NCBI GenBank assembly: GCA_030324005.1
Contig: JARDVH010000110.1
Location: forward strand, 40,563,308 to 40,627,307
Source of the DNA: Negaprion brevirostris
Taxonomy: Eukaryota
Length of the DNA stretch: 64,000 bases
Direction of reading: 5' to 3'
A program made the translations under genes and the position numbers. Of the stretch, positions 1-50,755 are shown piece after piece. Every line of letters starts with the position of its first letter. The stretch's first letter is position 1. The notes beneath the pieces are model-generated. The model ran no database searches. It was not told the DNA's origin and saw only the letters and a list, made by a program, of their open reading frames with translations.

Positions 1-3000
1 CATTTAAGGCTTTGTTATTGGATGAGAGTAGAAAATCTTATTTAGAGTTGGTCCCTGAGCAGGAATGAATCTTAACAACTAAAATAGGATTTAAATATAT
101 TGACCTAAAGAAGTTAGAATTTTAATTGTAGGTTGTTGGGATGCTGCTAACCACTTCAATAGTTTACAGAACTAAATGGAAATAGGATTTAGGCCTTGTG
201 GTTAGAATTAACTCGTATACAATGGGAGAGATGGGATGGAAACTAGAGTTGCAAAGGCTTGGGGAGGGTTTGGTGCAGTGGGAAAGTGGAAGGATGGGAC
301 AGCACTTGACTAGATTAAGAAAAGTAAAAATTAAGGGGGCAGAAAGAAAAGTTAAAAGTACAGAGCATGTGGCCTCGTACTTGATGTGATCTTGCCAAAT
401 TTGACAGGTATTTGGTAGTTTTAAAGTCTATGCATTTTACTTGTATTGTAGCCAACTCCTAGTCTATCTTAGAAAATTCTCTGCCAGATGGCGGCTTGAA
501 GTAATGTGAATGATTTGTTCAACTGCTCAGGCAGCGTGCTTTGGTGCTGCTTTCAGCCAAGCTGTTGTGAAAGTGTAGAGCCATTTTCACAAATTTGGTA
601 TTGTTCTGTTTTGTTGTTGAGGTTGGCTGAGGAAGACATTGGGCCTTGGGAACAGCTTGGAGAAAAGAAAAAAAATCACCTGCTTAGGAACTTTCGACCA
701 GCCAACACTTCAAATCTGCTCTTGACTTATCATTATTGAATCATTTAAGAATATAGGTGTGAGAACTTCATCTCATTAGCCTGCAAGGTTTATCTCCCTG
801 ATAGGGTCATGAATGATATTTGCCTTTGACATTGGTAAATCTTGTTTCACGTCAGCAAGACTTAACTTAAAGGAAATATATAATCTTAACATTTTAGAGA
901 TAGTGAGGAGAAGGAAATTGCTTCAACATCGGCGAATTTTGCGCATTTAAGTCATTCATGAATAATACTATCAGGCATACATTTCAAATCTTAACCGTGT
1001 TTATTTTAGGCACATTATGGCCATGTAAGGCCATCATTTATGTAATTGCATAGTCTGGATCCATTTCTGCTCTTAAATCTATAACTCCAACGGGTTTAAA
1101 ATTAAAAGGCTTTTTAAAAATACATTATTGAACTTCTAAGTAATGGCAAACATTGCCTGTCGGTGTAATATTGCTTATTCCAGTTGAGAAAATACTCCAA
1201 TTTGATTTGTTATATAAGTTTGCCCATTTAATGAATTATACAAGATTCAGTTGCTACTCATTGACATATTTGAAGATTCTGCTTCAAAGGAATAAATCCA
1301 TTTAAAAATAAAATTCAAGAGGAAATTGGTTCTCATCATCTTTTTCCGCATTGAGTAATCATTTCAATTTCATTGTTCTTGTGAATGAATTGCTACTGAT
1401 ATGAGGGCTTAGTATGCATTTACATTTTTGAATGATTTGTTCAGAACTTTTTTGCTCAAACTTTGGGCGTGACAGGGGAGAAAGCGGCACTGGGAATTAG
1501 TAATGCTAATTTAAATTTCTGAATCATATCTCATGAGATGCATGTTTTTCATTAGTCCTGATTCAACTATGAATCTCAAACCCTTGGGTCACAGTTATCC
1601 ATTGCCAGAATTTTGAATCTTTTTATGGGACAATTGCAACATAACCATTACTATATAGTATTTTCAGAGTTTTAAAATTTGAACACGTGTCCATCACTTA
1701 ACATACTTTCTTCAGATCTATGATATGATCAGTTTCCATTGTGTTAAAAGGTGTACTGTAGGTGGCCATTACTGTGTTTTTTCTCATAATTTTTCTCCAA
1801 TGCTGAAAGAGGTAGGACTTCACTTCAACTATTTCTTTCTCTAAATATTAAAAAACAACTTTAGACTTTTTACCTTTAAGTCTTATAGCCACTTGGTTCT
1901 GCTCCACAAAAATCATTGTATATGCTCAGTAATTTTAAACCAGATTTGATCAAATTTGTGATGGACAATGCTGTGATTAATATCCTGGCATGTGGCTGAT
2001 GTAATTTCGTTAAAATTCGGCATTTCCAACATGTGCTACTTTGATTTTTATAAGCACCAAGTTTTTCTCTTTAAATTGGACAAATCATCTAAAGAATTAC
2101 TTTCTCCTGAATCAGTCACAAGCTGGAAAAATTAAGTTTTCAAAAACAGAACAACTATGATTTGACTGAAAATGGATTTTCAGGTGGAGGAAGATTTAAC
2201 TATAATTGTGATGCTAAATTGGAGCGCATATTGAGTCTTCAGCATAACATAAGAATAATGTATTAATGTAGGACCATAGAGATGATGATTCAAAACTTGG
2301 GAGCATTGGCACACTTGTACTGCTCCCAAATAAGCCCCAAAGTGGATCCTTTGGATCTTCAGCTGAATGCCCCATTAGTGAGAGTGTAGTAATTTGTTTC
2401 ACTAACAGATCAGAATCAGACTCTTTCCTTGGCCTATCAGCCTGTACAAATTCTTCTGCACTACATATTTTCTAAAATAAGGAGTTTAGGTTAAATATTT
2501 GAAGTCATTCTACTTATTTTTTTTCTTTTTCCTCTCCTGAAGATTCAGAATGGGAAGAGATATATGGTATGTGTATATTTATGGTCTGTTTGCCCATTGC
2601 CTTGATTTTTGTGTTTGCTGTTTGTGTGAAGATGGTGGTTTTATAGTTTTTTTTGCCCCCAGTGCATTCACTTTCTGTTGCATGTTTTATGGCATTCAAA
2701 ACAGTATGCGAAGTACAGTACAATTCTAAATTCGAGATGTATGAGAAATGAGTCACTAGTAGCATGTGCTTTTAAAGCCAAGCTATTTTCAAGTTTGAGG
2801 TAATATCATTTTAATATGGAAGTAAATTCCTTTATTTTATATTCCCCTCATAGTTTTCAACTTTGGTCACAATAAATATCTGGTCAGTGGCAGAATTCTT
2901 TTGACTTCCTGGATGAATGATTTGAGACCATATTCAAGGAGGTTCTATGATATTGCATAATACACACTGTTTTGCTGTACCATGATGTTCAGAAGCATCT

Positions 3001-3704: not shown

Positions 3705-4280
3705 ATGATTTAATTTGACTTATTATTGTCACATGTATTAACACAGTGAAAAGTATTGTTTGTTGTGTGCTACACAGACAAAACATACCTTTCATGGAGA
3801 AGGAAATGGAGTGCAGAAAGTAGTGTTACAGTCATAGCTAGGGTGTAGAGAAAGATCAACTTAATGCAAGGTAAGTCCATTCAAAAGTCTAACAGCAGCA
3901 GGGAAGAAGCTGNNNNNNNNNNNNNNNNNNNNNNNNNNNNNNNNNNNNNNNNNNNNNNNNNNNNNNNNNNNNNNNNNNNNNNNNNNNNNNNNNNNNNNNN
4001 NNNNNNNNNNNNAGAGAAAGATCAACTTAATGCAAGGTAAGTCCATTCAAAAGTCTAACAGCAGCAGGGAAGAAGCTGTTCTTGAGTCGATGGGTACATG
4101 ATCTCATACTTTTGTATCTTTTTCCCAACGGAAGAAGGTGGGAGAATGATTGGGGTCCTTAATTATGCTGGCTGCTTTGCTGAAGCAGTGGGAAGTGTAT
4201 GAGAGTCAATGGATGGGAGGCTGGTTTGCATGATGGATTGGGCTACCTTTACAATCTTTTGTAGTTCCTTGCAGACCACA
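3705..4280 (-). mobile_element. Rex1/Babar-type LINE, 5'-truncated 3' fragment, interrupted by a gap
   Basis: The minus strand encodes SFFPAAVRLLN, a C-terminal motif of Rex/Babar-type ORFs. It shares its 3' UTR with the copy at 11147-12535. Boundaries are approximate. Confidence 0.7.
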
Positions 4281-7270: not shown

Positions 7271-10084
7271 GACATTAAATCTGCATTTCAAACAATTTTG
7301 TGAGAAATGAAGCCTGTAGAGTTTTGAATTTAGACACACAGCTCAAATTGTACAGAAGTTGGGAATAAACATAGTGAAGAGTTTGGTCAGTGAGTACTGC
7401 ATGCCGTTTTGAACTCACCCATCTTAAGGGTGTTAGTCAAAATATGCCTAATGTAGATCTGCCAAGATAATGTTAACATTGGGTAAACTATCATTATCAA
7501 CAGGGATCTTGCATACCAGGATTATTTCTACAGTGGTAGAGAAAGTTGATCACAGTTAATAGACATCTGTAAAATTGATACATTTTGCTGAAAGTGTTGT
7601 TTGATCCTTGAGTCATTGTGAAGTAGTTGATCTTTGTAAGATAAGCTGACTTGATAGTGGGCAAGGAACAAATCATATGCTGGTCATAATATAACTGGCT
7701 ATGACGATATAAAATTTCACTTTTTGGCTTGGTTTCTCCCAGATACTTAGTTTTGTGCACTTAGCAGTATGGTGGTACCACATTACAAACATAGAATTAT
7801 TTCTCTGGCAGCGAGACTTTTGTCTGCACGCTTCTATGGAACGGTGCCTCTACCGCAGGAAGGTAGAGGAGTAGATCTATAATCAGGTACTAAATAGGTG
7901 TGAAAAAAGCAGGGGAGTAATGGGGATAATGCCCACTATGCTTCAGGTGGTCATGGGATGAATTCACTGAACCTCTGTGATAGCATACATTAGACACATC
8001 TCCAAATGAATGCCAACAGTGTTTGGTGTCCATTAAAATGGTAATGTAAACAAACATAACTTGTTTTAGCTCAAGCATATTCCTCCTCATTTCTAATAAT
8101 TGAGGTTAATTTTGTCTTGCAGCTAACATATCAGTAATTAAAGTATTTCAGATCTAGAGACAGTCCACCCATTTGTGGTGAGAAGGGAGATTTTTTGTCT
8201 TGGTTTTAATAATATCTAAGGACATTGTGCTTGGTTTGCTTGGAATCAAGATTGAGGAGAATGGGGGGAATTTTTGTTCCTGTGCCTGAAGCTGTGCTGG
8301 GATTCCTTGCTGCAAATTGTCGATTAGAAATAGTCTTAAATCTTTGTCAGCTTTGGAACACACTGGAAAATGAAACTTCACTTTTCTCAGCAACTTCACT
8401 AGATCTGAAAATCCTTTTGCCTTGTGGTTACAGGATTTGCTTGATTGAAAGTTCAGATTTTTCAACACGTCATTTTTGATGGTGCTTTAGCTGGAAACCC
8501 CAGACTTCTTGCAACTGCTTAAAACACTCCATTTTCCTGAATAGTGTTATACAAATCCAATAAATTCTGTGTTGTACTTACTACCACCACCACCACAGAA
8601 TCTTCTTTTGTGAGGTTGGTTTGCTGCCACAACCACAGCCTGTAAACAAAGGTGGGTCTTCACTGTTTCAGGGCAATCCAGCAGTTTCCAATCCCCACTC
8701 CCACCGCACCTAATGTGTCTCCCCCACAAATGTTCACTCTGGAGTCAGAAAATCTGAGGGGTCACTTAAGGGGAGGGTGGAAGGGAGGGAAGTTGTAGCA
8801 GCCCTTGCCCTCAACATAAGTGGGGTTTGCAGGAAACATGTCAGTACCTAATAGTAGTGTTGCAAAACAAATCTTTGTAATTCTTGAAATGTTACTAAGT
8901 TACAATATGGATGCTTTAAACATACAATGATTAAATTGATTACCATACTGCTTTTATTCCGAGTAAAACTAAATGCAACTAATAATTTTATTCAATGGCT
9001 TACTCTACCCTGAGTTCTAGAATTGTTTTGGAATCCATTATCGTTTACGTCAAGAAATTCTCAATTTGAAGCATTGGATAGGAATTGATGTTCAGTTGCT
9101 TTGAGAATATTAATTTTTGTTCCTGAGAATCTATTTTACTATAAAATAACAGATTTTTCTGTAACTTTGTCAGAATAAAATCTACTTCTTAAATAGCAGA
9201 ATGTTGCTGCATATTTTGCCAAATTATTTCCAGCCCAAGAGCAGCATCAGCTGACCTATTTATGGTAATTGTGCTTAGATAGTATAATTGAAAGTTGTAT
9301 TGTTGATGATCCATCTGGTAAAACAGAGAATGAATAAAACGTGATGTGTGTCCATAAAGATGTAATTGGAAGTGAATTTATTGATAGCTCAACTGCTTCA
9401 TATTTTATCTTTTGTCCTTTCCTATTTCAGTAAACTTTTGCTGCATACCTCCTCTCCATTCCTCTTACGTTTGTGTTAAATGTAAGATGTTATGTTGTGA
9501 ATGGTGGTTTTCACCAACACTGGTGCATTCAATTCTTGGTTGGCATATGTAATTCATTGTAGCAGTCTTAAATTGTTTTGCGACTGAGTTTTAGAAGACA
9601 TCATAGCACTATGCAAAGGTTTTGCTTCAGTTCTGATAGTGTTAATTTTAAGATTGCACTGCAATTTGAATTCTGTGACTAACTTGTGTAACTAATGTGT
9701 CATGCAAACCATCATCATTGTAGCTTTGGACTGCTCAATTGTAAATTGATCTCTGCCACACTAATGTCAAAAATGCAGTTTGTATGTATGCTATAAAGTT
9801 TTTAAAGGGATTGGTGCAATCATCTAATTCTGACCGTGATGATCATGACTTGAATAAACCTTGACCTCATCATTTTTGATATTTTGTAATTATCTGACTA
9901 CTTGTGTTGCTGAATAAATTTGATTTGGATAAGAATGCATGCTTTCAATTGTAGAAGCTGTTTGTGCTCAATGTTCTTTTTATGATGAGTGAAAATTCTT
10001 AGTCCTGGTATATGCCACTTATAACTTGTTATAAATTATCTTCAAGCTCCCAAATGCATGCTCCGCATCTGCACAACTGAATCC

Positions 10085-18890: not shown

Positions 18891-21331
18891 AATTAGTAGT
18901 CATTGGCCCAATAATTGCTGTCAGAATAATGAGATGAATAGTCTTTATTATTTAGGTGCAGGAACATAGCAACGTCCAGCAAGGACAGGTGTGAGAACAA
19001 ACACAAAAACATGATGCTCTGACATTGGCTTGATGAAAATTGGCTTTTGCTGTCTGGCTCCCTATAAAATTGCATAGTGGCATGCATTTCCTGTACTTAA
19101 CAGTACATGTGAAGTAAATGCACCACAGAATTTTAAATCTGAGTATTCTTATAACCCTTTGCAGTATCATTACTGGCACTCAACACATTTTTAGTGCCAG
19201 AGAAGTTAATAAAAGTCTCAATCCTTCAGTTTTTGACTGTTGAAAACAAGAATTAAAACTTGTTATTTCTTTCTCTTTGCCTCCAACTTTTAACAAACTG
19301 ATTTAATGTTAAATTCACCATTCTAACTTCTTCCTAGTTCAGACCTTGCATAGTTCATTTCACAATCTTTCAACCCCCTTAGTTAAGATGCACTTGCCTG
19401 CACTGTTTAGTCAAGATATGAGATAAATTTGAGAGTGCCACGTCATTTCCACCTTGGACTTCCAGCAATGGGGAAGGCCAAGTTGGTAACTAATGGCAAG
19501 TGCTGTTGAGTGACTTACAGGAATTTTGGGCTTGTTTTTATTTTGACAACTATAGTGATACTGCTTTACAAAAATTATCATTGACAACTTTGATATTACA
19601 TCAGCATTGTAGCAAAATTGTCGATTTCTGATCCCAGCCAACTTCAAAAGGGTATTTTTGTGGTAACTTCATATTATATGTATCTTGTATGTATAAATAT
19701 GTTTACTAACTTTCAAAAGGAAAAATATTCAAAGTAATTTCACCCAGTTTCCTTGTTACCAACTCTCCTGCTGCAAAGTTTCTCTCCATTAGCTCTATTA
19801 ACATTTTTCATAATTTTAAAATCTTTAAATCTCTTCTTGCCTTATCCTGACTTGGCTAATCGTTAACTAATGGAAAAGCGTGGTTAATTCACATCCTTTA
19901 TGTTTGAATGATGGGTCTCTCACCCAAGTAACAGTATAATGCAAATGATGAAGAAACAGGATAAATTGTGCACCAACCTTCGAATTTCTTCATTTAACTA
20001 CATGTGGATGCTGACTGTTGCTGTCCGATTTTGCTCTGTAATGAAAGTGAATGTTTTGTTCCTATTGCATAATCCAGTCCCATACATTTATGTTGAAGTT
20101 AAACAACCTCTGCTGAGTAACTGCATTATCTGTTTCAGCCAGTGTTCTATTTATAATCCTGGCCGACAGGCAGGTGGGTTTAAAAAATACACTGGAGGTT
20201 GCTGGGACTTAGCACCACCATTTGACAACCATGGTTTAATGCCTCTCAGGAGCAATATTTTGTGGTATCTTAGTAATATCTCTTCCATGCATCCTCACAT
20301 TTTCTTTCTGGATACAAGTCAAAAACTCACTCCAGGTTTCCAGTGCAGTTTAATGTTGCTGTGAAGTGAAAATCACTTTGCAACAATGTAAATGTTAAAG
20401 TAATGAAGCATCTTACTATTACGCTATACTATTTCAAACCTGAAAGTGCTTTTNNNNNNNCACAAGTGAATGCTTAAAGGGTGATCTTTAACATCCTTTG
20501 CAAAGGATGCAAGAATGCAAAGTTAACGGTTGCCTACCATCAAATCAATGGGCTGTATTAGATGCAAAGCTGGAAATAACTTGAGGAAAAACAAGGATCT
20601 GCACAGGTGTAGCAGTTGGTAAAGTTTCTCGAGTGAAACTAACTTTTTTATAGTTTGCTAAAAATATATTTTTAAACACTTAACAGAGCTAGCCACTATG
20701 ATCATTTACCTTAGACTTGCTTTGTAGTATGGAAGAAAGCACGTTAGTTCATCAGGTGTCCAAACATTTTCAGAGGCTTGTTTGAAACTGCTGAAGGTTA
20801 ATTCAAATTTAGTCCCAGGGCTGCTTTTGAATAAATGATCTGTGATTTGCATGCCTTGAAATTTTAATTTCAAGTTGCATAATTCATGATCCAGCACCAA
20901 AGGAAACCTTTTTTAGTTGGCTATATTTCTGACAAATTTAAACAGTGTACTTTTCATATTGGTTCAAAAAGAACAGGAAGGAGTACAAAAATATGTTCAG
21001 AATTCAGATCTAATTTTTGCTTTTTAATAATTGTATCAACCTGTGATGTACATTTGTATTGGGCAGGGTAGAAATTGAAAACTTGACAATTTTTAAAAAA
21101 GCTTGTAATAGTAATGAGACAAGGCAGGAAAGGAAGCTGCTGTCTTCAGAAGCATCTGGCTTAATATATATTCCAATCCCTTAATCAGAAATGTCAAGTT
21201 ACTTTAGTTGTATCTTATTTTAAATTGCATGTTTAGTATGAAATGAAGCTCACTAACCTTATTTGTGCATGAACTGCATTTAATGTATGGCTGTTATGTT
21301 TGTGTCTTTGCATTTTCGCCTGCAACACTCC

Positions 21332-21338
21332 TACTAAC
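21332..21338 (+). promoter_or_regulatory. Perfect-consensus U2 branch point (TACTAAC) for the exon starting at 21360
   Basis: TACTAAC with the branch A at -23 from the acceptor; no AG between it and the acceptor. Confidence 0.75.
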
Positions 21339-21359
21339 TGTGATGAATCAAAACAAAAG

Positions 21360-21516
21360 GAATTGGTAAATTATCCACTGCTGATGGTAAAGCCTTCGCA
21401 GATCCTGAGGTACTCCGAAGACTGACTTCTTCTGTTAGCTGTGCGTTGGATGAAGCTGCTGCTGCCTTGACCCGAATGAGAGCAGAGAATACTTTAAATG
21501 CAGGACAAGCAGACAA
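21360..21516 (+). CDS. ANKHD1: ANKHD1 coding exon (~exon 3), 157 nt: (G)IGKLSTADGKAFADPEVLRRLTSSVSCALDEAAAALTRMRAENTLNAGQAD(N)
   Basis: AAAG|GAATT acceptor and AA|GTATGT donor. The translation matches the MASK-family N-terminal conserved segment. Confidence 0.93.
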
Positions 21517-49620: not shown

Positions 49621-50755
49621 ATGTCAATACACTTTTAATTTGAGAGCTATTAAAGATGAGTTTAATCTGCCTATACCCAGTGACCCTTGTTGGGAAATAA
49701 TAATCAGNNNNNNNNNNCTTCCTGCTGTTCCAGCTGAGATCAACTAAAAGACTATAAATTAAGCTTTTTGTTCAGTATCACCAGGAGTTTTATTGGATGA
49801 AACTGTGGAATCAAGGGAAATTTACCTGTCAACTTGAAATAGCTTTTTGTGAAAAATTAATTTGGAAACCTTAAATATTTGTGTATTCAAAGTTCGTTAG
49901 CATCTTGTTCTTTGTGGTGTCAGCATATGGAGAATGCTGGGAGGTTATAGTATTCAAAGTACATGCATGATTTCTGTTGTACAATTCTTTAAAAAGAGAT
50001 CTGGAGAAACATGGAACAGTTTTTTGAAATGTTACAAACATGAATCAATTATTGTAATTATACAATTGTTAATGTGATTTACCAAGTATCATTCAAAATG
50101 AAAAATAGATTGGGGAATTTTAAGTATTACCATTGGAAAATTTTGGCCAAAGTTCCTTCAGATAGCCATTTTCAGTTGTATCCTGTAACATTTAATCTAG
50201 GTCTTTAACAGAAGTGGTCCAAGTGTAAATGATCTAAATATGATTCGGAAAATTTGAATTTTTACAGTTGAATTATTTGGCAACCTCTTCAGTTGTCCTG
50301 AGCCACTTAAGTTTGATTCAGATATTTCTTGCTCCCAAATATTATAAACTTCAATAGATGTAGCATTCGAACATGGGAATGCACAATTGCTTAGATTAGA
50401 ATATTATAATACTTATTTTTAAAGATGTCTTAATGTTGGTTAGCCATCATGCTATTTTTGTATCTCTGCCCTATATCCAAGTTTAACATTTTCTAGAAAT
50501 ACCATGAAGGAGATACTATTTAATGTAATTTTTTTCCTTTCCCTCTTCCTCTCTGACAAAAAAACATGACATAATTTCAGATAACCCTACAAAAGTGATA
50601 TCTGGAATACAAATACTTCATTAGATTAAACAAAGCAAATGTAGAATAGTTTGTGTTCAGTGCTAGACTGAATAAAAGCCACAAAGTTTACACTGGTTTC
50701 ACATGGGTAAGTAATTTTTGCATGGCATTTTTTCAAACATTTTTCGTGTGCTTAG

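Follow-up and report, generated by a model that had tools for sequence, protein, structure and literature searches.

The ANKHD1 locus of Negaprion brevirostris raises the question of whether a very short element in a long intron is a microexon that can be spliced into the message. The window, i.e., the whole stretch of 64,000 nt that was analysed, encodes ANKHD1 from the exon at 21360 onward, as mapped by tblastn. The diagnostic residues match ANKHD1 and not ANKRD17, in agreement with a preliminary description of the sequence. The same description placed the element between exons 2 and 3 of the gene. The downstream border of this placement stands: the next ANKHD1 coding exon lies at 21360..21516 on the + strand, begins in phase 1, and is here called exon 3, a number that we presume from the human gene. 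The upstream border does not, as exon 2 lies outside the window, and the phase was therefore taken from the downstream exon and from homologues. As there is no upstream coding exon inside the window, the intron is longer than 21 kb and its first part lies beyond the window.

Exon 3 is almost identical to that of teleost ANKHD1. The long exon of the window gave its top score with a caecilian protein among the proteins compared, and a sequencing-run search recovered it in 22 of 24 rows, with a word share of 0.71–1.00 and always as contigs; no RNA data set was among the records listed. All nine window ORFs submitted to a cluster look-up were absent from the collection, and a search of the ESM Atlas gave no usable match. 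Two identical 66-base copies at 3847-3912 and 4013-4078 flank a gap of 100 N and are probably an assembly overlap. The acceptor of exon 3 has no adjacent pyrimidine tract, scores −4.5 bits and has an AG-exclusion zone of 109 nt. The region upstream of it (21226-21359) has ACTAAC twice, at −108 and at −27, as well as TGCATG at 21226 and 21266. Of 47 ORFs on other contigs that read through the intron, 13 have a Thr-Asn pair, which is compatible with ACTAAY, 37–44 codons upstream; this hints at a distant branch point or a QKI site that may be conserved.

The candidate microexon is preceded by a nearly pure pyrimidine tract of about 25 nt at 2513..2538 (+ strand; 24 of 25 pyrimidines at 2513-2537), which had been pointed out before. 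It is one of two such tracts outside exons on the sense strand, and the antisense strand has another two. The sole other 24/25 tract on the sense strand, at 50528-50552, lies ∼230 nt upstream of a 744-nt exon; some isoforms of homologues may lack this exon, as P0062, P0064 and P0065 have no match there. The motif list suggests a candidate branch point of the form yUnAy at 2513..2517 (+ strand), with the A at 2516. The last AG upstream of the candidate is at 2503-2504, leaving an AG-exclusion zone of 36 or 42 nt depending on the acceptor.

Splice sites were scored with weight matrices that approximate the textbook ones, with thresholds set post hoc, after the site had been seen. Both of the tandem acceptors that had been described were found, AAG at 2540..2542 and CAG at 2546..2548 (both + strand), with scores of 10.1 and 14.2 bits, respectively, compared to a maximum of 7.2 bits among 14 real ANKHD1 acceptors. 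We favor the CAG because of its higher score and because thymine tends to be set back from the AG in alternative microexons, according to PMC4317164. For the donor GTATGT at 2567..2572 (+ strand), which had been called strong, the sequence and position (ATG/GTATGT, cut at 2566/2567) were correct, but its strength is moderate at 3.0 bits. It is outscored by 8 of 14 real donors, a count that depends on an approximate matrix and on script-placed borders of which at least one is misplaced. The intronic hexamer is identical to that of the donor of the next real exon.

Use of the AAG acceptor would give a microexon of 24 nt (2543..2566, + strand) encoding DSEWEEIY, and use of the CAG one of 18 nt (2549..2566, + strand) encoding EWEEIY; both lengths lie within the limit of ≤27–30 nt between AG and GT that was set as a size test. 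As had been claimed, both preserve the reading frame and contain no stop in phase 1, and the final G of the candidate together with the first two bases of the exon at 21360 regenerates the Gly codon. An alternative first coding exon was rejected, as neither of the two ATGs in the body is in frame with the exon that follows. A recursive splice site, in which an AG is immediately followed by GT, was rejected as well, since the two acceptors read AAG/ATT and CAG/AAT.

The downstream intron is UG-rich, as originally noted, and the RBFOX-type motif TGCATG (predicted binding) is present at 2679..2684 (+ strand), 112 nt downstream of the donor; this motif occurs in 4.5% of background windows of the same size. 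The flank at 2573..2696 (+ strand, 124 nt) has a T fraction of 0.50 and contains 20 TG, values that are each matched by ∼0.1% of 11,036 overlapping background windows. It also contains four YGCY motifs (2591, 2598, 2616, and 2654), a count reached by 4% of the background windows. No ACTAAY (QKI) motif was found in the 200 nt downstream of the candidate, and one is present upstream at 2401. In a hairpin predicted at 2524..2560 (+ strand), the purine-rich body pairs with the pyrimidine tract, with pair probabilities of ∼0.9. In the predicted fold the CAG is buried in the stem and the AG of the first acceptor is unpaired and exposed in a tetraloop. The hairpin is non-significant (z −1.3), with 19 of 200 shuffles folding equally well.

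The candidate site had been picked beforehand out of the whole window. Among the short-exon candidates, 33 on the plus strand and 28 on the minus strand, its 18-nt form ranks first with 17.2 bits, followed on the sense strand by a locus of 13.2 bits; the best antisense control attains 15.5 bits. That locus, the second-best candidate of the same intron, is a 51-nt element at 9431-9481, which would create a stop codon at the junction when joined to exon 3 and is possibly a poison exon or a pseudo-exon. Markov models, which under-produce long T runs, reached 17.2 bits in 3 of 36 simulated 60-kb runs, and in 0 of 36 if the site was required to be in frame and stop-free. The combination expected after a tract, an AG and a donor of at least 3 bits, in frame and within 27 nt, occurs at 0.38% of 18,463 intronic positions. 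With two sense tracts this gives a rough chance rate of ∼0.8% per window, before the downstream motifs are considered. T-richness on both sides of the candidate may represent a single simple-sequence patch, so that the features are not independent. The splice-signal and flank tests are post hoc and partly correlated; they make the site unusual and are compatible with a pseudo-exon among very many windows.

To compare the exon junction between species, we assembled 372 homologous proteins, including the best 120 of 215 matches and the best 120 of 1457 matches, the latter from tetrapods only, and at most 15 members per cluster among the matches listed. Turtles, birds and mammals are represented in the set by many RefSeq isoforms, teleosts by few proteins, and no protein has a chondrichthyan name. 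An EWEE-like insert was found in 0 of the 272 junction-spanning homologues among the matches listed, none of which is chondrichthyan-named. The spacing of the junction is standard in 260 of the 272, shorter in seven and longer in five, and is thus almost invariant over the bilaterian homologues among the matches listed. The five longer inserts (P0056, P0076, P0085, P0096, and P0103) show no sequence relationship to the candidate and resemble gene models that run on into the intron; they sit within the 272 and were not counted as support. Because of the composition of the set, this null result argues against an annotated pan-vertebrate exon and not against one in sharks.

Neither ankhd1 nor ankrd17 is present among the rows listed in the zebrafish neural-exon table (PMC12626424, 12 files) or in the vertebrate retinal exon tables (PMC9303857, 18 files), which do list the positive controls (itsn1, apbb1 or other ankrd genes). 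A search of the full-text literature, with subscription papers, VastDB and bioRxiv supplements outside its scope, did not find an ANKHD1 microexon, and literature on ANKRD17 and microexons yielded nothing relevant. The exact candidate pattern had 0 matches in metagenome contigs, and a search for related loci returned eight, all invertebrate-like. An antisense ORF over the site had one match at E 6e-4 among 1.84 billion proteins, which we take as chance and not as a real homologue.

At the protein level, the insert would fall in a conserved block predicted to form a helix-loop-helix, ∼55 residues N-terminal of the first ankyrin repeat. A goose homologue modelled with AlphaFold2 has the junction (G78) just after a helix (64-76), at the start of a loop (77-92); as the pLDDT is ∼45–57 around the junction, this placement is tentative. 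No Pfam family covers exon 3, and in the PDB the best stretches among the 60 matches listed belong to ankyrin repeats; none of these matches spans the junction or covers the block as a domain of its own. We regard the position in the loop, together with the flank statistics, as circumstantial support for a microexon.

Spliced variants of this junction exist elsewhere. An in-frame AG lies 33 nt into exon 3 at 21391..21392 (+ strand), matching an acceptor that would give an isoform shorter by 11 residues, and another lies 42 nt into the exon at 21400-21401. These AGs match the shorter junctions of elephant isoforms (P0151 and others) and of a whitefish model (P0088). The change in ANKHD1 splicing in SF3B1 mutants presumably concerns the acceptor pair of the 11-residue difference. 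Such differential splicing of ANKHD1 is described in PMC4643177. In human ANKHD1 isoform 2, 11 aa are missing at position 152 (PMC10454556), and five elephant isoforms, e.g., XP_064133175.1 (P0151), lack exactly those residues. The candidate shares with the human (PMC10454556) and elephant isoforms the exon junction and the predicted loop, and the corresponding AG is present here at 21391-21392. The human and elephant isoforms remove residues, most likely by an alternative acceptor, whereas the candidate would add them through a separate cassette.

Taken together, we tentatively favor, at close to an even chance, a lineage-restricted, regulated in-frame cassette microexon of ANKHD1, with the 18-nt form as the preferred one. 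A substantial possibility, somewhat short of this, is that the site is a pseudo-exon: the intron, >21 kb long, would contain a simple-sequence patch, rich in T, that is followed by AG and GT by accident and is never meaningfully spliced. This would agree with the insert being found in no homologue among the matches listed and in no paper, and with the nearly invariant junction spacing of the bilaterian homologues among the matches listed. The 15.5 bits of the antisense control point the same way, and a chance rate of ∼0.8% per window is not negligible over very many windows. However, no simulation produced an in-frame site of 17.2 bits, and T-richness alone leaves TGCATG and YGCY unexplained. 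Nor does the site match the dispersed repeats of the window, and the antisense ORF has no real homologue.

The site could also be a decoy or a low-level cryptic unit, possibly together with an acceptor at 2662/2663, that affects processing or decay of the intron and not the protein isoform. The second acceptor-like site, at 2641-2662, scores 7.2 bits and lies 96 nt after the candidate donor; any long exon that starts there would carry stops, and the read-through contains stops as well. In addition, the acceptor of exon 3 is so weak that a strong intronic acceptor could compete with it. We nevertheless consider a decoy improbable, as the two short forms are in frame and contain no stop, and the acceptor at 2663 lacks a strong partner donor (2.5–3.0 bits). 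Least probable is a classical pan-vertebrate neural microexon dependent on SRRM3/4. The candidate resembles this class (bioRxiv 10.1101/2024.09.17.613571) in its length of ≤27 nt, its frame and a tract set back from the CAG. In the same work, UGC between branch point and AG is reported for 74–79% of SRRM3/4 targets, i.e., it is usual and not obligatory. The candidate differs in having no TGC between 2457 and 2591, and hence neither AG has a UGC between it and the presumed branch point, which makes the class unlikely. Its donor is only moderate where a strong 5′ splice site is expected, and no zebrafish counterpart or retinal exon is among the rows listed in the tables above.

The favored cassette microexon can be compared with RBFOX-associated micro-exons. 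In the analysis of Li et al. (2015, PMC4317164), the only motif with enrichment in the downstream flank of alternative microexons is TGCATG, and thymine is shifted >20 nt upstream; this shift fits the 18-nt form. The candidate resembles the micro-exons of that analysis in being ≤51 nt and a multiple of three, with a pyrimidine-rich upstream flank and TGCATG downstream. Junction reads and conserved flanks served to define them, whereas the candidate is known from its sequence. In the 33-nt striated-muscle microexon of Snap23 (PMC12064062), downstream RBFOX2 rescues a weak donor, and MBNL adds a minor layer. This microexon is like the candidate in its frame, its weak donor and its downstream motifs of RBFOX2/MBNL type; the candidate differs in having no ACTAAY (QKI) within 200 nt downstream.

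A microexon of this kind would be poorly defined and skipped by default, given that it is very short, that its donor is only moderate and that its tract is predicted to pair in part with the exon body; the predicted hairpin, by burying the CAG, would favor the same outcome. Binding of RBFOX at TGCATG and of UG/YGCY-binding factors, which we take to be of CELF/MBNL type, to the downstream flank might raise inclusion in muscle, heart or neurons. When the exon is included, the CAG would most likely be used, placing EWEEIY at the start of the predicted inter-helix loop, and the AAG would give DSEWEEIY. The acidic/aromatic insert would thus lengthen the loop that the +33 acceptor shortens by 11 residues, and may tune a protein contact. 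A bolder version, which we consider unlikely, is that of an ANKHD1 microexon of cartilaginous fishes which bony-vertebrate annotations lack and whose own acceptor would be hidden in the hairpin and opened by RBFOX/MBNL-type factors. Together with a conserved +33 acceptor, one ancient Mask/ANKHD1 inter-helix loop would then be made in four spliced lengths (−11, 0, +6, and +8 residues).

If the microexon is not real, the site is an example of how convincing a pseudo-exon in a long intron can look. If it is real, the gain is modest, being one exon of a well-known class, and a lineage-restricted microexon would be added for a group with little microexon data. The ankyrin repeats of ANKHD1 dimerize, according to PMC6606961. 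The nearly invariant and structurally unsolved helix-loop-helix that precedes these repeats would then be a surface tuned by splicing.
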